From: Longimicrobiales bacterium
GTDB lineage: Bacteria; Gemmatimonadota; Gemmatimonadetes; Longimicrobiales; Gaopeijiaceae
DNA length: 64,000 bases
Direction: 5' to 3'
NCBI GenBank assembly: GCA_965238005.1
Contig: OZ250165.1
Coordinates: 1,024,001-1,088,000 of the forward strand
A program made the translations under genes and the position numbers. The notes under the pieces are model-generated. The model was not told where the DNA came from and searched no databases. It saw only the letters and a list, made by a program, of their open reading frames with translations. Position 1 is the stretch's first letter; every line of letters begins with the position of its first letter. Of the stretch, positions 8,855-15,578 are shown piece by piece.

Positions 8855-9012
8855 ATGCGTACCAAGGGAACAGTGAAGTGGTTTAACGACCAGAAGGGCT
8901 TTGGGTTCATCACGGCGGAGGACGGCAGCAAGGACTGCTTGTCCACCACAACTCGATTCAGGCGGAGGGCTTCAAGTCCCTCGCTGAGGGAGCCTCGGTG
9001 GTAGCGCTGTAG
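8855..9012 (+). pseudogene. Cold-shock protein, frameshifted and truncated
   Basis: [28 protein letters not shown], then in another frame [17 protein letters not shown]. Confidence 0.85.
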
Positions 9013-11126
9013 TGTCCGATCACGCTTCGGTGGTCGCGCAGGAACTCGGAGCGGCCGTCCAGCAGGTGCGGGCGACCTCCGAGCTCCTGACCAGCGGGGC
9101 GACGGTGCCTTTCATCGCCCGATACCGGAAGGAGGCCACAGGGTCTCTGGACGAGGTGGCGGTAGCCGCCGTCCGGGACCGCATGGCGCAGCTGGCCGAG
9201 CTCGACAAGCGCCGTGACTCGATCCTGGATTCGCTCTTGGAGAGAGGTCTCCTCGACGACGAGCTCCGACGTCGCGTCGTAGGCGCCGAGACCCTGCCGG
9301 CCCTCGAGGACGTCTATCTGCCCCACCGCCCGAAGCGGCGCACCCGGGCCATGGTGGCGAGGGAGCGGGGCCTGGAGCCTCTGGCGAAGGCCCTCTGGGC
9401 GCAGACCGGCGAATGGATCGACGTGGCGGTCTTCGTGGATCTCGAGCACGAAGTCGAGGACCGCGATGCCGCCCTCGCCGGAGCCAGGGACATCATCGCG
9501 GAAGACGTCAGCGAGGACCCGGAGGTCCGCCGCGATCTGCGTCATCTCTTCACCCAGCGAGCGCTCCTCGTCTCCACGGTGGTCAAGAAAAAGCAGGCCG
9601 AGGCGTCGAAGTTCCGGGACTATTTCGAGTGGTCCGAACCCCTTTCCCGGGCGCCGTCCCACCGGATCCTCGCCATCCTGCGGGGGAGCAACGAAGGCTT
9701 CCTCCGGGTGCAGGCGAGACCCGACGAGGCCGACGCCTTGGTGAGGCTGAGGCGGCGCCACCTGCGCGGGCACGGCTTCGACGGGGAGGAGGTAGGCCGC
9801 GCCCTCGACGATGCGTACAAGCGTCTGCTTCTCCCCAGCCTCGAGCGTGAAGCGCTGAAGGGGGCGAAGGCCCGCGCCGACAAGGATGCCATCCGGATCT
9901 TCGTCACGAATCTCCGTGAGCTCCTCATGGCGCCGCCCTTTCGGAACATACGGATGCTCGCCATAGACCCTGGCTTCCGGACCGGGTGCAAGGTCGTGGC
10001 GCTGGATGCCCAGGGAGCGCTCCTGCACAACACCACCGTATTTCCCACCCAGGGTCGGGGCCGGCGCGAGGCAGCCGAGCGGGTCGTCCGGGATCTCGTC
10101 CAACGCTTCTCCCCGGAGGCTGTCGCCGTCGGCAACGGCAAGGCGGGACGAGAGACCGAAGCCTTTATCAAGGACCTGGCCCTCGGGCCCACGGTGATCA
10201 TGGTCGACGAGAGCGGTGCGTCCATCTACAGCGCCAGTGACGTGGCCCGCGAGGAGCTGCCCGAGCACGACCTGACGGTCCGGGGTGCGGTCTCCATCGG
10301 GCGTCGCCTCCAGGATCCCCTGGCCGAGTTGGTGAAGATCGACCCCAAGTCCATCGGCGTAGGCCAGTACCAGCACGACGTGGATCAGACTGCGCTCAGA
10401 TCGGCGTTGGAAGACACCGTGGTGAGTTGCGTCAACGCGGTGGGCGTGGACCTCAACTCCGCCAGCGCGTCCCTTCTCACCTACGTGGCAGGGCTTGGGC
10501 CCGTGCTGGCCAAGAACGTCGTGCGCTGGCGTGACGAGAACGGCGCCTTTCGGACCCGGCGAAACCTGCTGAAGGTACCGCGGCTGGGCGGCAAGGCATT
10601 CGAGCAGGCGGCGGGCTTCCTCCGCATTCCCGACGGGTCACACGCTCTGGATGCGAGCGGCGTGCACCCGGAGCGCTACGCCCTGGTGGAACGTATGGCC
10701 AAGGACCAGGGATGTTCGGTAGGGGACCTGCTCACCGACCCGGGGCGCCGGAGCCGCATCGTCCTCGATCGCTACCTCGGTGAGGGTGTGGGCCGCCCCA
10801 CCCTGGACGACATCCTGGATGAGCTCGCCCGTCCGGGACGAGACCCCCGTCCCGCTTTCGAGGCCTTTTCCTTCGGCGACGTCCACGCCATCAGCGACTT
10901 GAAGCCCGGCATGGTTCTGCCCGGCATCGTCACCAACGTCACGGCCTTCGGTGCCTTCGTGGACATCGGCGTCCACCAAGACGGCCTCGTCCACGTGAGT
11001 CAACTAGCGGATCGCTACGTGAAGGACCCCAACGAGGTCGTCCGCATGCGTCAGCAGGTCCAGGTGCGCGTCCTCCAGGTCGACGTCGAGCGGAAGCGCA
11101 TCGGCCTTTCGATGAAGGAGGGGTAG
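9012..11126 (+). CDS. tex: Tex family RNA-binding transcriptional accessory protein
   Basis: GATVPFIARYRKE, IDPGFRTGCK, DPKSIGVGQYQHD, C-terminal S1 domain. Confidence 0.95.
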   Translation: MSDHASVVAQELGAAVQQVRATSELLTSGATVPFIARYRKEATGSLDEVAVAAVRDRMAQLAELDKRRDSILDSLLERGLLDDELRRRVVGAETLPALEDVYLPHRPKRRTRAMVARERGLEPLAKALWAQTGEWIDVAVFVDLEHEVEDRDAALAGARDIIAEDVSEDPEVRRDLRHLFTQRALLVSTVVKKKQAEASKFRDYFEWSEPLSRAPSHRILAILRGSNEGFLRVQARPDEADALVRLRRRHLRGHGFDGEEVGRALDDAYKRLLLPSLEREALKGAKARADKDAIRIFVTNLRELLMAPPFRNIRMLAIDPGFRTGCKVVALDAQGALLHNTTVFPTQGRGRREAAERVVRDLVQRFSPEAVAVGNGKAGRETEAFIKDLALGPTVIMVDESGASIYSASDVAREELPEHDLTVRGAVSIGRRLQDPLAELVKIDPKSIGVGQYQHDVDQTALRSALEDTVVSCVNAVGVDLNSASASLLTYVAGLGPVLAKNVVRWRDENGAFRTRRNLLKVPRLGGKAFEQAAGFLRIPDGSHALDASGVHPERYALVERMAKDQGCSVGDLLTDPGRRSRIVLDRYLGEGVGRPTLDDILDELARPGRDPRPAFEAFSFGDVHAISDLKPGMVLPGIVTNVTAFGAFVDIGVHQDGLVHVSQLADRYVKDPNEVVRMRQQVQVRVLQVDVERKRIGLSMKEG

Positions 11127-11184
11127 GGGCGCGTCGGTCCCCTCGCCACCGAAGCGCCCGAGGCGCCTCCGTGAAACCAAGGGG

Positions 11185-11213
11185 TTGACACTTCCGTACG
11201 ATGCCGTTAGATA
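11185..11213 (+). promoter_or_regulatory. Putative sigma70 promoter of leader/tRNA array
   Basis: TTGACA - 17 nt - TAGATA. Confidence 0.45.
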
Positions 11214-11345
11214 GGTCGCCTGGGAGTCGCGTCCCGATGCAGTCAGCCCGGCCACGGCCGTGCTGGTGAGGCGTCGGCGGCGCGATTTTTTTCGCCCTTG
11301 GGCGTGATAGAACGACAGACGGAAACGAGAAAGAGGCACGATTCG

Positions 11346-11597
11346 ATGTTGAGGCAGATCGACAAATCAGAGCGCATCCAACGGCGATGGGTCCCCGCTG
11401 TGGGCGCCCTTACGCCCGGACGGCGCCTCGTAGCGCCGCGATCGGCGTGGGCCGAGGCTGCGCTCGGGATAGGGCCGAATCGATCCGAGCCGAGGAGCCA
11501 CATGAGGCATAGCAGACAGGATAGCAACGTCGCCCAACCGGAATACCGGCCAGCGACAGGAAAGAGACGCGCAGGATGGGAGGGAACCGTGCACTGA
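11346..11597 (+). CDS. Putative leader peptide (uORF, 83 aa) of tRNA array
   Basis: AAGAGG upstream of ATG; stop lies about 26 nt before a terminator; last codons overlap an antiterminator strand. Confidence 0.45.
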   Translation: MLRQIDKSERIQRRWVPAVGALTPGRRLVAPRSAWAEAALGIGPNRSEPRSHMRHSRQDSNVAQPEYRPATGKRRAGWEGTVH

Positions 11598-11623
11598 GTA
11601 CGGGCCCCGACGGGATCTGCCCG

Positions 11624-11661
11624 AACGCCCCACCTGCGCAGGAAGCGGGTGGGGCGTTTTT
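11624..11661 (+). terminator. Intrinsic terminator/attenuator upstream of tRNA array
   Basis: AACGCCCCACCTGC-GCAGGAA-GCGGGTGGGGCGTT followed by TTT. Confidence 0.75.
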
Positions 11662-11807
11662 CGTTCAGCGCCCACCCGAGCTGTTTGAAAACGATGCATG
11701 CGCGCCGGCGTTCCAAGCGCCCGGCGGCGTGTGGTGCTGAAAGAAAGAGACGCGACTCCCTGGACGCACCGCACGTCGTCGGTGCGTTTGGGCGGACCAG
11801 CAGACAA

Positions 11808-11927
11808 GGGGGCTGTAGCTCAGTCGTTAGAGCACTAGCCTCACCATTCATTCGCCCGCTTCTCGCGGGCCGAAGGCAGAGGATTATCGGAACCAAGTGG
11901 TCGCGGGTTCGAGTCCCGCCAGCCCTC
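11808..11927 (+). ncRNA. Y RNA (YrlA)-like tRNA mimic
   Basis: Acceptor stem, D arm (GCTC/GAGC), T arm (GCGGG-TTCGAGT-CCCGC); anticodon arm replaced by a ~60-nt stem with GCCGAAGG and a bulged C. Confidence 0.6.
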
Positions 11928-11994
11928 CTGCCTCTGTCTGATCGCCGGAAACAAGCTGCGTGAGCAGCGGCATCACTAGGTCTTGTGAGTTGTT

Positions 11995-12067
11995 TGCAGG
12001 GTAGGTGAGAGGCACCTCTCCGGGTCTCATGACGCGGAAACCGTGGGTTCGATTCCCGCCCCTGCGA
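11995..12067 (+). tRNA. tRNA-Met(CAT), degenerate
   Basis: TGCAGGG/CCCTGCG acceptor, CTCATGA loop, T loop TTCGATT; anticodon stem imperfect. Confidence 0.55.
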
Positions 12068-12072
12068 TCTAT

Positions 12073-12156
12073 GCCCCCGTGGCGGAACTGGTATACGCGG
12101 CCGGCTCAGACCCGGCTCCCGCATTCGGGTCGCAGGTTCGAATCCTGCCGGGGGTA
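12073..12156 (+). tRNA. tRNA-Leu(CAG)
   Basis: GCCGG-CTCAGAC-CCGGC, long variable arm, TTCGAAT. Confidence 0.9.
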
Positions 12157-12223
12157 CTGGGGTCGGGGCTAGCCCCTGCCGGAAGAATGCCGGCAAGAAG
12201 CCCGGTGAGGAGGAGGGAACTAT

Positions 12224-12307
12224 GGATGGTACCGTCGCATGGGCGGCAACCGGTCTTGAAAACCGGGGCGGCGTAACGGCTGGGGGGTTCGACTCCTCTG
12301 CCTTCCT
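12224..12307 (+). tRNA. tRNA-Ser(TGA)
   Basis: CCGGT-CTTGAAA-ACCGG, long variable arm. Confidence 0.8.
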
Positions 12308-12313
12308 CTTCTT

Positions 12314-12397
12314 GGAATGCGAGTCGCATGGTGCGCAAGGTGGTTGCTAGCCACTGAGGGGCTCACGCCTCGTCAGGTTCGATTCCTGGGCATTCCT
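12314..12397 (+). tRNA. tRNA-Ser(GCT)
   Basis: GGAATGC/GCATTCC acceptor, GGTGG-TTGCTAG-CCACT, long variable arm. Confidence 0.8.
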
Positions 12398-12403
12398 CTT
12401 TGG

Positions 12404-12474
12404 AGCGGTATGGGAGCGGTCTCCCGCCGGGTCTCATGAGCCTGGCCTGGTCGGTTCGACTCCGACTGCCGCCA
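12404..12474 (+). tRNA. tRNA-Met(CAT), initiator-like 1:72 mismatch
   Basis: A1xC72 mismatch, CGGGT-CTCATGA-GCCTG, GTCGG-TTCGACT-CCGAC. Confidence 0.7.
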
Positions 12475-12475
12475 T

Positions 12476-12548
12476 GTGGCCGAGGTCAAACAGGTTGCGG
12501 CACCGGGTTGTGAGCCCGGGGAAGTGGGTTCGAGCCCCACCGGCCACC
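12476..12548 (+). tRNA. tRNA-His(GTG)
   Basis: GTGGCCG/CGGCCAC plus C73, CCGGG-TTGTGAG-CCCGG. Confidence 0.8.
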
Positions 12549-12549
12549 T

Positions 12550-12623
12550 TGGGGTGTGATCGTGACTGGTAACGATCCGGTCTCTTAAACCGGTCCATGT
12601 GGGTTCGAGTCCCACCGCCCCGA
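12550..12623 (+). tRNA. tRNA-Lys(CTT)
   Basis: CCGGT-CTCTTAA-ACCGG, GTGGG-TTCGAGT-CCCAC. Confidence 0.8.
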
Positions 12624-12627
12624 CTAT

Positions 12628-12699
12628 AGACCTGTAGCTCAGCGGTAGAGCATCCGTCTAATACGCGGAAGGCCGAAGGTTCGACTCCTTCTGGGTCTA
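12628..12699 (+). tRNA. tRNA-Ile(AAT)
   Basis: Canonical cloverleaf; TCCGT-CTAATAC-GCGGA gives anticodon AAT. Confidence 0.8.
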
Positions 12700-12703
12700 C
12701 TAT

Positions 12704-12863
12704 TGGAGTGTGGCCGATGTGGCAAGGCACTCGGTTGTTAGCCGAGACCATGTGGGTTCGAGCCGAGCGGTCCAGATGTCTACCGCATATGTGGCCCAGT
12801 TCATCTTCCGCGAGACGACTGAGGATTTCCGAAGGCGACCGCAGGTCAATCCCACCGCTCCAG
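12704..12863 (+). tRNA. tRNA-Asn(GTT) interrupted in T loop by 87-nt insert (12762-12848)
   Basis: TGGAGTG/CGCTCCA acceptor, CTCGG-TTGTTAG-CCGAG, GTGGG-TTCGA[insert]AT-CCCAC. Confidence 0.85.
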
Positions 12864-12866
12864 CTT

Positions 12867-12941
12867 GGTCTTGTGGGGGAGTCAGGAGTCCCCGCCTGGT
12901 TGTCAGCCAGGAGATCGTGGGTTCGAATCCCACCAGGACCG
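12867..12941 (+). tRNA. tRNA-Asp(GTC)
   Basis: CCTGG-TTGTCAG-CCAGG, G73. Confidence 0.9.
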
Positions 12942-12962
12942 CTGCTTTATAGGCGATTTTTT

Positions 12963-13034
12963 GCCCCCTTCGTCTAATGGCTAGGATTGCGGCCTTTCAC
13001 GCCGCAGAAGACGGATCGAAACCGTCAGGGGGTA
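12963..13034 (+). tRNA. tRNA-Glu(TTC)
   Basis: GCGGC-CTTTCAC-GCCGC; atypical T loop ATCGAAA. Confidence 0.85.
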
Positions 13035-13037
13035 TCT

Positions 13038-13118
13038 GGAGGGGATGCCCCGGCGGTGGGGCAGCGGCCTGTAAAGCCGTGGCCATCGAGCAGGTTGGTT
13101 CGACTCCAACCCCCTTCA
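13038..13118 (+). tRNA. tRNA-Tyr(GTA)
   Basis: GCGGC-CTGTAAA-GCCGT, extended variable region. Confidence 0.8.
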
Positions 13119-13122
13119 CTAC

Positions 13123-13282
13123 AGAGTGGTAGCTTAGCGGCTAGAGCACGTGGTTCGGGACCACGGTGGCGTCGGTTCGAGCCGAGGCGGAGGTATGCTT
13201 ATCCGCGGTGCGGGCTAGAGGCAGACCGCCGAGACGAGCGAGGATCGCCGAAGGCGACCGCAGCTCAATCCGACTCACTCTA
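13123..13282 (+). tRNA. tRNA-Pro(CGG) interrupted in T loop by 87-nt insert (13181-13267)
   Basis: AGAGTGG/TCACTCT acceptor, CGTGG-TTCGGGA-CCACG, GTCGG-TTCGA[insert]AT-CCGAC. Confidence 0.85.
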
Positions 13283-13353
13283 TGACCCGTCGTCCAGCGG
13301 CAGGACACTGGGCTCTGAACCCAGAGACATAGGTTCGAATCCTATCGGGTCGG
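13283..13353 (+). tRNA. tRNA-Gln(CTG)
   Basis: CTGGG-CTCTGAA-CCCAG, ATAGG-TTCGAAT-CCTAT. Confidence 0.9.
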
Positions 13354-13358
13354 TTTAT

Positions 13359-13433
13359 GCACCGTGCGTCGTGCGCTGGGCGCAGGCGGGGCTCCAAACC
13401 CCGCCTTGCTGGGTTCGATCCCTGCCACGGGCT
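13359..13433 (+). tRNA. tRNA-Trp(CCA), degenerate
   Basis: CGGGG-CTCCAAA-CCCCG; imperfect acceptor, D and T stems. Confidence 0.6.
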
Positions 13434-13436
13434 CTC

Positions 13437-13507
13437 CCTCGCCGGGGGAATGGTCGGCATCGGGACTACGAATCCTGATTGCGGTGGTTCGACTCCACCC
13501 GCGAGGA
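13437..13507 (+). tRNA. tRNA-Arg(ACG), degenerate D arm
   Basis: CGGGA-CTACGAA-TCCTG, GGTGG-TTCGACT-CCACC. Confidence 0.65.
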
Positions 13508-13508
13508 C

Positions 13509-13577
13509 TGCTCCAGGGAAGGATTCCCCTCCGGGCTTCCGAAGCCTGGATGTCCGGTTCGAGTCCGGATGGGGCGA
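13509..13577 (+). tRNA. tRNA-Arg(CCG), shortened D arm
   Basis: CGGGC-TTCCGAA-GCCTG, TCCGG-TTCGAGT-CCGGA. Confidence 0.6.
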
Positions 13578-13609
13578 TACGGTTCGAGTCCGACTCAGAT
13601 CTCTCTCAT

Positions 13610-13685
13610 GCTCCCTTAGCTCAGTCTGGCCAGAGCGGCAGGCTTACATCCTGCGCCGGCGGAGGTTCGAATCCTTCAGGGAGTA
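13610..13685 (+). tRNA. tRNA-Val(TAC)
   Basis: GCTCCCT/AGGGAGT, GCAGG-CTTACAT-CCTGC. Confidence 0.9.
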
Positions 13686-13748
13686 CTGACCCGTAGCCCC
13701 TCTCGGCACTTTGCGGGCGTATTCAGCTTCGGCGACGCCCGCCCCCAA

Positions 13749-13900
13749 CTGGAAGTGGCGCAGCGGCTAGCGTACCTGCTTCGGACGCAGGGGGTCGGTG
13801 GTTCGAGCCGAGCGGTCAGTCAGTGCTCGAAGGGCACGGCGGTCTCTGCGAGACCAGCGAGGAGGGCGAAGCCCGGCGCAGCTGAATCCACCCTTCCAGA
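13749..13900 (+). tRNA. tRNA-Pro(CGG) interrupted in T loop by 79-nt insert (13807-13885)
   Basis: CTGGAAG/CTTCCAG plus A73, CCTGC-TTCGGAC-GCAGG, GGTGG-TTCGA[insert]AT-CCACC. Confidence 0.85.
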
Positions 13901-14084
13901 CTCCTGCCTTCCCCGTCACTCCGGACGGTACGGGGCCGTCCATCAACGTTCTCGCATAGCCGTCCTCATGATGTACATGGCATGTACTGTACATGTCCTA
14001 GAATGTCATTTTACAGACTCGAAATCGTTGGGTCACGCCGTGCTGTTGCCCATGCAAACTGTTGGTCTACAAGCAGTTAGATCG

Positions 14085-15578
14085 TGAGATGGTACCTCAC
14101 CACTGATAGGTAACGCTTTTCTCACCCCTGATGGGTGACAGTCTCGACCCGTAACGTGGCGCTCCTTCGACACGCTCTTGGAGCTGCCCATGCCATGGTT
14201 GGAGACCGATCCCATGAACGAACGCAAGCGATTCATCCTCGAGGCCACCGCGAGCCTCTTCTCCCACTCCGAACTCTGCCGACGCTACAACATCAGCCGC
14301 AAGACGGGCTACAAGTGGCTCGAACGATACGAGACCCAAGGACCCGACGGGCTGCTCGACCGCTCCCATCGGCCCCATTGCTGTCCCCACGCTACTGAGC
14401 CCCACATCCTCGAGGCTGCCTTCGAGCTCCGCCGTCGTCGACCCCGGTGGGGAGCTGCCAAGATCCTAGGCCGCCTCCTCGAGGTGCACCCCGACTGGTC
14501 GCTACCCGCGCCCCAGGTCCTGCACAGACACTTCCTGCGCGAGGGCCTGGTCAACAAGCTGCGGCGCCGACGTAAATCCTCTCATCCCGGTCGACCCACC
14601 GCGCCCTTCGATGCGCCCAACTCCATCTGGTCCGCCGACTTCAAGGGGCAGTTCAAGACCCTCGACGGCGTCTACTGCTACCCGCTCACCGTCCAGGATG
14701 GCTTCAGCCGCTACCTGCTCGCTTGTCAGGGCCTCTCAGGGACCACCTACGCCGGTTCCAGACGTGTTTTCACCCGCCTCTTCCACGAGTTCGGGATCCC
14801 CGACCGCATCCGTACCGACAACGGTACTCCCTTTGCCTCCATAGCCTTAGGGCGCCTCTCCAGGCTCTCCGTCTGGTGGATCAAGCTCGGCATCCTGCCC
14901 GATCTCATCGAGCCCGCATCTCCCCAGCAGAACGGCCGCCACGAACGCATGCACAAAGACCTCAAGGCTGAGGCCACCATCCCGCCCGCCGGAAACCGAT
15001 CCGCTCAGCAGAAACGCTTCAATGCCTTCCGCATTGATTTCAACGAGATCCGGCCCCACGAGGCCCACGGCCAGAGGCCGCCCGCCTCCGTCTACGAGCC
15101 CTCAACCCGTCCCTTCCCCAGCAAGCTCTTGACCCCCGACTACCCCGCCCACTTCGAGACCCGTAAGGTCTCCATCAACGGCGGCATCCGATGGCACTCC
15201 GCCTGGGCCAACGTCTCTCATCTGCTCGGCGGCGAATACATTGGCCTCGAGGAGGTCGCCGACGATGTCTGGGCTGTCTACTTCGGTCCCGTCGCCCTCG
15301 GTTGGCTTCACGTCCGAAAAGCTGCCATCCTCGATCACGATGGCTCCTCGTCCCGTAATCCACGACGCTGAGGCCGCGTGAACTGCCCAGCCCCTCAGAC
15401 GTCGACGCGAACCGCTACCTTCGTGGAACTCCGCTCGCTTCTACTCCCCTGCGCTCCGGCGCAGCGGAAGCTTCTGACTCCACCGGTGGAGGTAACAAAA
15501 AAAACAGCAGCTTACCTGACAAGAACTGTCACCCATCAGGGGTGTGTAACTGTTGGTACCCATCAGGGGTACCGCTCA
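14085..15578 (+). mobile_element. IS481-family insertion sequence
   Basis: Imperfect terminal IRs (TGAG..GGTACC...CACCCCTGATGGGTGACAGT) with internal repeats; no target duplication visible. Confidence 0.8.
14190..15371 (+). CDS. IS481-family DDE transposase
   Basis: HTH ISRKTGYKW, WSADFKG, IRTDNG, PQQNGRHERMH. Confidence 0.92.
   Translation: MPWLETDPMNERKRFILEATASLFSHSELCRRYNISRKTGYKWLERYETQGPDGLLDRSHRPHCCPHATEPHILEAAFELRRRRPRWGAAKILGRLLEVHPDWSLPAPQVLHRHFLREGLVNKLRRRRKSSHPGRPTAPFDAPNSIWSADFKGQFKTLDGVYCYPLTVQDGFSRYLLACQGLSGTTYAGSRRVFTRLFHEFGIPDRIRTDNGTPFASIALGRLSRLSVWWIKLGILPDLIEPASPQQNGRHERMHKDLKAEATIPPAGNRSAQQKRFNAFRIDFNEIRPHEAHGQRPPASVYEPSTRPFPSKLLTPDYPAHFETRKVSINGGIRWHSAWANVSHLLGGEYIGLEEVADDVWAVYFGPVALGWLHVRKAAILDHDGSSSRNPRR

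Follow-up and report, generated by a model that had tools for sequence, protein, structure and literature searches.

In attenuators of the trp type, a leader open reading frame (ORF) precedes mutually exclusive helices, its stop codon is placed so that a finishing ribosome favours the terminator, and an early hairpin serves as a synchronising pause. In the whiB7 leader of mycobacteria, a fairly long upstream ORF (uORF) of mixed composition lies 5' of a rho-independent terminator; efficient translation leads to the terminator, poor translation leads to an antiterminator, and the leader reads general translation stress (10.1101/2023.06.02.543512). Here we describe a leader from a Longimicrobiales bacterium, found in a 64,000-nucleotide (nt) stretch of contig OZ250165.1 (positions 1,024,001 to 1,088,000), the whole of which we call the window. 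It lies 5' of a gene for a tRNA-like RNA and an array of tRNA genes. We consider it probable, from the comparison of related loci, that this leader couples transcription of the Y-RNA-like gene and the spare tRNA array to the performance of ribosomes on a non-conserved uORF. We regard it as a new variant of ribosome-mediated attenuation; literature searches, supplements aside, gave no prior description, and the mentions of RtcB and of leader peptides in PMC4007540 stand in contexts unrelated to the leader.

The likeness to the whiB7 leader, which an earlier note on this DNA had drawn and for which that leader does serve as a precedent, lies in the combined logic of uORF and terminator (10.1101/2023.06.02.543512). 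The differences are several. No sequence or Rfam relation between the two was found, and our leader belongs to another phylum, the Gemmatimonadota. It targets RNA genes and RNA-repair enzymes, whereas the whiB7 leader targets a transcription factor, and it has in addition a terminator-like hairpin (T1), a boxA and a hairpin (H3) whose loop is complementary to the 5' end. The whiB7 peptide is enriched in alanine, whereas the Gemmatimonadota uORFs have no comparably enriched residue. With trp-type attenuators the leader shares a leader ORF, exclusive antiterminator and terminator helices and the placement of the stop codon, and its first hairpin (H1) could be a synchronising pause. However, its uORF has 38-148 codons without regulatory codon runs, compared with about 14 codons in trp, its stop codon lies in a hairpin loop within the antiterminator domain, and the genes downstream are non-biosynthetic. 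The toiL system of E. coli (topAI-yjhQ) reportedly acts through Rho and translation access, and not, as here, through an intrinsic terminator. The toiL uORF senses several classes of ribosome-targeting stress (PMC12121999), and a uORF serving as such a sensor is what the two systems would have in common.

The features of the leader through its main terminator are as follows.

11185-11808, + strand: the whole leader, about 600 nt, of which 11346-11661 is the decision module
11185-11213, + strand: promoter P1 (TTGACA, 17-nt spacer, TAGATA), the one promoter-like site upstream of the uORF, from sequence
11221-11239, + strand: 5' motif M, TGGGAGTCGCGTCCCGATG, at the extreme 5' end of the transcript, containing a Shine-Dalgarno (SD)-like GGGAG and an AUG
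11221-11293, + strand: hairpin H1, formed in the fold by M and its partner A (CGTCGGCGGCGCGA, about 11272-11285) and followed by U7, together the terminator-like T1
11346-11597, + strand: uORF of 83 codons, ATG at 11346 and TGA at 11595-11597, from the ORF listing
11569-11584, + strand: antiterminator strand (AT), with core GCGCAGG at 11569-11575 and then ATGGGAGGG, from duplex energy, covariation and the truncated fold
11587-11603, + strand: P_stop, a small hairpin (CCGTGC-ACTGA-GTACGG) with the uORF stop codon in its loop, from folds
11624-11661, + strand: intrinsic terminator T2, with a 14-base-pair (bp) stem at 11624-11658 and a U-run to 11661, -31.0 kcal/mol

The earlier note had placed an 83-codon uORF just 5' of a strong terminator, and all of its coordinates are correct. 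The pairing that it proposed is also present: GCGCAGGATGGG (11569-11580) is complementary to the T2 5' arm CCCACCTGCGC (11629-11639) with one bulged A, giving a duplex of -22.8 kcal/mol. T2 likewise stands, as the note had it, between a promoter (P1, 11185-11213) and the tRNA array (from 11994). Thus, the note had the uORF, AT and T2 right, and it overlooked T1, the boxA, H3 and the position of the stop-codon loop in a three-way domain. The arms of T2 are AACGCCCCACCTGC and GCGGGTGGGGCGTT, its loop is GCAGGAA, and the uORF ends 26 nt before it; AT encodes Ala-Gly within the uORF. An SD-like AGAGG ends 9 nt 5' of the uORF ATG, the 3' end of the 16S rRNA carrying CCUCC, and an alternative start for a longer uORF is the TTG at 11298. 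The leader follows the tex gene, which ends at 11126, and its predicted transcript starts at about 11219-11221. P1 had been overlooked by a consensus scanner because its -10 box ends in A; the rRNA promoter of the source genome is TTGACA-N17-TATCGT, and by eye a TTGACA-N17 with a TAnnnT-like -10 box occupies the position of P1 in most of 13 related loci. By itself, the pairing in the window is weak evidence, marginally above chance, and it is the comparison across loci that settles the case.

No match to the leader DNA was found among 40 close relatives, two genomes of the same genus included. Among 401 genomes of the phylum, one matched both leader ends and several matched the 21-nt 5' block together with the terminator, 300-550 nt apart. 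We took 13 related loci from BLAST and 80 loci, with 3.5-kb flanks, via the exact 19-mer M (8 of the 80 have less than 1.5 kb of downstream flank), and 94 loci of this Gemmatimonadota family were studied. The exact 19-mer is present in at least 119 contig stretches among the matches listed, nearly all of them titled Gemmatimonadota, and it occurs once in the source genome; its 16-mer with at most one mismatch is found in 123 of the 401 phylum genomes, a count that includes chance hits. The invariance of M within the 80-locus set is partly by construction, because these loci were chosen via M. In a scripted test, all 20 fetched variants of M with an internal mismatch lacked the T2 core, the boxA and the promoter and had only loose matches to partner A or B (the complement of M in H3), and for that reason we class them as chance hits; it follows that true members hold a 15-nt core of M unchanged. 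Use of these variants as a compensation test for A and B was abandoned on the same ground.

From 5' to 3', the members of the family consist of a promoter, M/H1/T1, an ORF, AT, a stop-codon hairpin, T2, often a boxA, H3 and the first gene. The promoter is of the sigma-70 type (TTGACA-N17-TAnnnT), and partner A takes the form CATCGGnGnCGCGAyTTT with a T-rich tail in nearly all of 93 loci. AT has the 7-mer consensus G[CT][GA][CT][AG]GG and mostly lies 56-76 nt 5' of the T2 arm; in the alignment, the spacer between them holds the stop-codon hairpin, then two sequence blocks, CCGGAT and GGGAGCGA. In 79 of the 94 loci there is a T2 hairpin whose core reads CGCCCC[AG]CC[TC]G[CT]GC, and the corresponding regular expression matches the source genome once, at the T2 of the window. 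A boxA-like element (CTGTTTGACAA-like) follows T2 in 35/78 loci. Judged by this shared anatomy, the leader is a real, conserved RNA element of the Gemmatimonadota.

We tested the helices in an alignment of 72 sequences, with a structure string drawn from those sequences. In the 7-bp core helix of the antiterminator (GYGCAGG with CCUGCRC), 93% of cells are paired, and three of the seven pairs show compensatory changes: columns 17-107 (A-U 55, G-C 10, G-U 5), columns 15-109 (G-C 64, A-U 4, G-U 4) and columns 14-110 (C-G 35, U-G 29, U-A 3). The antiterminator pairing proposed in the earlier note is thus conserved. The whole 14-pair structure is 85.6% paired, compared with 31-50% for registers slid by 1-3 columns, which are at a disadvantage because the structure string came from the same sequences, and none of 500 shuffles attains the observed pairing or covariation score. 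The T2 helix, with 13 pairs, is 94.7% paired; five of its pairs show compensatory changes and five never vary. The covariation of column 107 extends to its partners in both helices, AT and T2, a pattern to be expected of structures that exclude each other. Only a small number of compensatory events underlie these counts, chiefly a CCCG/CGGG change of the Longimicrobium type and a CCTGTGC/GTACAGG change.

Folding predictions are consistent with these two states. In transcripts truncated just 3' of the T2 5' arm, the minimum-energy fold joins five or more of the seven AT core bases to the arm in 72 of 75 unique loci (all seven in the window), and the full-length minimum-energy fold retains T2. 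The pairing in the truncated folds closes a three-way domain, which encloses the stop-codon hairpin together with a mini-hairpin (GGGAGCG:CGCCCC in most loci). The stop codon lies in a hairpin loop at the equivalent place in other loci (alignment A1), and both of the counted pairs in the P_stop stem show compensatory changes. On the strength of the covariation, AT and T2 are mutually exclusive helices predicted to share one strand, and an ORF lies upstream of the intrinsic terminator on the same predicted transcript; both are properties of ribosome-mediated attenuators.

The uORF was examined in the 77 loci that have an AT anchor. In 71 of these, an ORF of 38-148 codons (median 71; threshold 35 codons) that begins with ATG ends 10-30 nt 3' of AT. 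In 66/77 loci the stop falls in the frame in which AT is read as GCA-GGN, the counts for the remaining two frames being 11 and 3; in loci of the Longimicrobium type the frame is a different one and the stop lies at +18 to +27 nt. TAG (44), TAA (13) and TGA (14) all serve as stops, so it is the function of stopping that has been kept and not one triplet. The designated frame is open farther 5' of AT than both others in 64 of 75 loci; counted by non-redundant peptide group, this holds in 40 of 50. From these regularities we infer that the uORF is translated.

The same observations bear on the proposal that chance, in a GC-rich, T-poor spacer, produced the uORF and the AT pairing as well as their geometry. 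Statistics from the window alone are weak, a GC content of 65% makes open frames common, and the T content is low (skew of A over T +0.27 to +0.36), all of which would suit such an origin. However, the other two frames provide an internal control, being free of stops from M to the uORF stop in only 13 of 150 cases compared with 45 of 75 for the designated frame; the stop lies exactly +25 nt from AT in 48 loci; and the covariation of the AT and T2 helices contradicts chance outright. We therefore hold this proposal to be highly improbable.

The uORF peptides are not conserved and have no single-residue runs, the latter as the earlier note had said of the window; their pooled composition is led by R (13.6%), A (11.8%) and G (11.6%). 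Such variable, run-free peptides fit a sensor of translation in general. Regulatory codon runs or enrichment, as in amino-acid-specific attenuators of the trp, his or leu type, were not found in the uORF peptides. A conserved small protein was also considered and ruled out: the window uORF matches no Pfam family, and the peptides differ freely among loci.

We propose that when a ribosome is absent or lagging, the nascent T2 5' arm would pair with AT (11569-11584), and that this pairing would close the three-way domain around the stop-codon hairpin, so that T2 would be blocked and transcription would go on. A ribosome that keeps pace to the stop codon inside the domain would hold the domain open, T2 would form and transcription would end. 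Past T2, the polymerase would reach the boxA and become processive through the untranslated RNA genes. The likely input would be elongation slowed by damaged or scarce tRNAs or ribosomes, for example by cleaved or depleted tRNAs. Both the direction of control and the signal are ones that we infer from the arrangement of the leader and its genes.

Several points weigh against this ribosome-coupled model. In the window, 7.5% of 1000 dinucleotide shuffles of the 319-nt upstream stretch match the energy of the duplex between AT and the T2 arm (1.2% when only the last 99 nt are shuffled), and across the family only 14 of 79 loci have a duplex energy that beats shuffles at p<=0.05, the median p being 0.225. 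Coding-type periodicity is absent: GC at codon positions 1/2/3 is 0.655/0.607/0.690 in the window uORF, where tex has 0.743/0.438/0.848, and 0.652/0.615/0.713 in the pooled uORFs. An SD-like 4-mer precedes the ATG in only 31 of 71 uORFs, and the first possible start varies, lying 16-254 nt from M. The translation of the uORF that the earlier note presumed thus has the conserved frame and stop position in its favour, and the flat codon-position GC and the sparse SD-like sites against it. The AT core lies just 5' of the expected footprint of a terminating ribosome, and masking would have to be indirect. T1 follows directly after the promoter with no evident antiterminator; it would cut transcripts before the uORF, and the model leaves it unexplained. 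Furthermore, 80 of the loci were ascertained through the exact motif M, and the loci are related, so that counts overstate independent events and the compensatory changes come from few lineages. Finally, the evidence for the mechanism is one of sequence. Weighed together with the conserved pairing, frame and stop position, these points leave the ribosome-coupled attenuator of the earlier note supported, with translation and the direction of control as its predicted elements; nothing that we found contradicts it.

Beyond T2, the leader and its genes continue as follows.

11679-11692, + strand: boxA-like element, AGCTGTTTGAAAAC, from identity to the rRNA leader element
11713-11792, + strand: long hairpin H3, whose apical part carries B, GACGCGACTCCC (11749-11760), complementary to M
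11809-11927, + strand: tRNA-like RNA, a candidate Y RNA of the YrlA kind (Rfam tRNA, 46.7 bits)
11994-13821, + strand: array of 17 tRNA genes (ARAGORN)

The pattern CTGTTTGA[AC]AA occurs twice in the source genome, at 11681 of the window and some 165 nt 5' of the gene for 16S rRNA. Over 14 nt, the element after T2 is identical to that in the rRNA leader, and a variant is present in the 16S-23S spacer. Because the rRNA operon of this genome carries it in its leader and, as a variant, in its spacer, and by comparison with the E. coli boxA consensus, we read the 14-nt element as a putative boxA. As with rRNA boxA/Nus systems, the identical element precedes untranslated RNA genes; the difference is that here the putative boxA lies behind a regulated terminator in a tRNA/RNA-repair leader, which would place such a terminator in series with an rRNA-type boxA. 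Within 450 nt, the boxA and a tRNA T-arm motif occur together in 24 loci and are both missing in 33, with 8 discordant loci each way, counts that are descriptive since the loci are non-independent. Leaders that run straight into RtcB (L113-L115 and L120-type, in our numbering of loci) mostly have no boxA, and those before tRNA or Y-like genes have one. The pattern fits a polymerase that starts at P1 and would need protection only before untranslated genes.

These findings also bear on whether P1 to T2 could be a separate small-RNA gene of about 440 nt that ends at T2, the array having its own promoter 3' of 11661. Two successive terminators, the second of them strong (-31 kcal/mol) and always retained in the full-length minimum-energy fold, would suit a small RNA, and M and B could act between separate transcripts. 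However, a scan that covered promoters of the sigma-70 type found none in 11662-11808, between T2 and the first RNA gene. The TTGACA/TTGAAA after T2 was considered as a second promoter and rejected, since it has no -10 box here and, by eye, none that is consistent in related loci, and since it is identical to the rRNA-leader boxA; the earlier note had itself named an internal promoter as the observation that would count against it. A boxA would be useful only to a polymerase coming from upstream. The other tRNA array of the genome, in contrast, has a promoter about 20 nt before its first tRNA and no leader, and a small RNA would require neither the covariation of AT nor the conservation of the ORF. 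A separate small RNA is thus very unlikely, and the ribosome-coupled attenuator remains the reading that we prefer.

For T1, M and B we can propose only putative roles. The terminator scan flagged 11271-11283 plus a T-run as T1, which may be a pause awaiting a ribosome. M includes GGGAG, a 10-nt gap and then AUG. An ORF from this AUG was considered as a fixed first leader ORF that opens T1 and was rejected: it is the main uORF in 15 of 93 loci only, and its geometry is inconsistent because its stop spans -95 to +1326 nt relative to partner A. Likewise rejected was H1 as a Ro-binding stem, since H1 has no GNCGAA and is present also before operons without Ro60. In 71 of 81 loci B lies 358-739 nt 3' of M, in the apical part of H3, where nACGCGACTCCC is exactly complementary to M. 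Of 78 local folds, 43 leave B largely unpaired within a helix that spans it, and by eye the differences in the H3 stem between loci preserve pairing. Neither M nor B varies among true members. This perfect complementarity points to a role as a second input, a long-range clamp or a processing site.

It is such invariance that favours another explanation, in which the antiterminator domain senses a trans-acting ligand (a protein, an RNA fragment or a small molecule) at the three-way junction, with the uORF in a supporting role. The blocks of the spacer between AT and T2 (GGGAGCGA and CCGGAT) are conserved beyond the needs of pairing, the T2 stem is nearly invariant, with its five pairs that never vary, and the invariant 15-nt core of M with a perfect complement in a hairpin apex resembles a recognition site. 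A precedent for a fragment as ligand is the Salmonella rtc operon, which senses tRNA fragments via RtcR (PMC7790460). On the other hand, no ligand has come forward: the longest complementarity of M to rRNA, tmRNA and other stable RNAs of the source genome is 8 nt, about that expected by chance. Nor does any Rfam family match the leader in 11127-11808; a search of 11000-12100 at E<=10 gave only tRNAs and chance-level hits, and at the gathering score the window and 20 related loci gave tRNAs only. A ligand would also leave unexplained why the frame and stop are fixed to AT in 71/77 loci with all three stop codons in use, and why the designated frame alone stays open. We consider a ligand sensor unlikely, though less so than a separate small RNA, and retain ribosome progress on the uORF as the probable input.

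To our knowledge, how RNA repair is induced outside the Proteobacteria is largely unknown, the one worked-out case being that of RtcR, a protein that binds broken tRNAs. RtcR is a sigma-54 activator with a CARF domain that controls rsr-yrlBA-rtcBA and answers tRNA damage (PMC7790460). The gene set is the same as that downstream of the leader (RtcB, Ro60, Y RNAs); the difference is that control by the leader would be in cis, at the RNA level and during elongation. Genes for RtcB, TROVE/Ro60 (TROVE with vWA_Ro60), Hen1 or Pnkp lie on the same strand within 3.5 kb of the leader in 50 of the 80 loci. Since the same leader precedes RtcB, Ro60/Y-RNA and Pnkp-Hen1 genes, the likely signal would be a failure of translation elongation that results from RNA damage.

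Other downstream genes encode a methyltransferase, an EF-Ts-domain protein (3 loci), a member of the 3-keto-disaccharide hydrolase family (6 loci) and an HNH protein. The EF_TS match is to a short protein in L127, L133 and L177, and 3keto-disac_hyd matches were recorded in L127, L132, L149, L171 and L185; in L145, QueF of the queuosine pathway follows RtcB. The EF-Ts-domain and QueF neighbours suggest a wider translation-related regulon. Transfer RNA genes lie between the leader and the repair genes in 18 loci and are mostly Arg, His and Asp, with one array of 16 tRNAs. Nucleases of the colicin E5 type cleave the tRNAs for Tyr, His, Asn and Asp. Colicin D cleaves tRNA-Arg (PMC7790460).

Tentatively, and with somewhat less than even confidence, we suggest that the leader governs an RNA-damage regulon of the Gemmatimonadota that is free of RtcR, in which it would read the progress of the uORF, and maybe a second RNA input via M and B, and would activate RtcB, Pnkp-Hen1, Ro60/Y RNAs and spare tRNAs. 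If true, such a regulon would give these bacteria a built-in means to replace and repair tRNAs that come under attack. The leader would place RtcB, Ro60/Y RNA, Pnkp-Hen1 and spare tRNA arrays under one cis-acting translation sensor throughout the phylum, and puzzling redundant tRNA arrays would gain a purpose as an inducible backup set. In addition, the compact module of uORF, three-way antiterminator and terminator, with a peptide that is free to vary, would be useful for studies of the coupling of transcription and translation.

In the source genome, the RtcB gene has no such leader in front of it, and no TROVE match was found. The genome has two tRNA arrays, that of the window and a second at 4.45 Mb (C1:4451264-4453598), which is the array without a leader. 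In the window array, 14 of the 17 tRNAs are divergent duplicates, 56-72% identical to their isoacceptors elsewhere in the genome, and the seven anticodon-loop bases differ in 10 of the 14 duplicate pairs. The other three are a Met(CAT) with copies elsewhere, an Ile(AAT) at 12628-12700 with none elsewhere, and one of undetermined anticodon at 11994-12069. Only 10 members of the array reach the Rfam tRNA gathering score. The sole Phe tRNA gene of the genome is in the second array, and Asp, Trp and Glu(UUC) are confined to the two arrays. Synteny with tex was considered and set aside: the nearest tex relative, whose Tex protein in a Longimicrobiales metagenome-assembled genome is 84% identical, has no tRNAs downstream, and related leaders do not lie behind tex.

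The RNA at 11809-11927 is 119 nt long and tRNA-shaped, with an insertion of about 50 nt (55 nt by Rfam) at the position of the anticodon arm that carries GCCGAAG. The motif in the Ro60-binding stem of YrlA Y RNAs is GNCGAAN0-1G (PMC4201824), which GCCGAAG fits; it is present in 8 of 17 long relatives only. The tRNA-like domain of a YrlA-type Y RNA is recognised by the Rfam tRNA model at 46.7 bits, whereas the Rfam YrlA model gives 14.9 bits against a threshold of 69, offset to 11873-11965. No Ro60 gene adjoins this RNA, there being no TROVE match in the genome, and Ro60 often follows such RNAs in related loci. The first RNA gene after H3 is of the long form (about 125 nt) in 17 of 26 cases, its insertion carrying GGGCCG[ACG][ACG]GG.

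Between the tRNA-Tyr and tRNA-Gln genes, the interval 13122-13272 contains an element of roughly 100 nt with GGATCGCCGAAGGCGACC as well as a tRNA-like match that is weak (24.9 bits, 13130-13186). Copies of the element, 72-95% identical, are present in many relatives, some of whose genomes have several, and one copy lies in the second array (C1:4451373-4451470). The element may be a repeat, or else a further module of the Y-RNA-like kind. An IS481-family transposase gene (HTH_28, rve, LZ_Tnp_IS481) immediately follows the window array, at 14178-15371, with low-GC DNA at 13900-14100. The transposase occupies the position where related loci have Ro60 or RtcB, and the IS481 insertion may have displaced or replaced these genes. 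Farther upstream in the window, a 49-codon ORF at 8855-9004 has a match to the cold-shock domain PF00313 that is limited to the first 25 positions of the domain; beyond them it is out of character, and it may represent a frameshifted csp gene or an assembly error.

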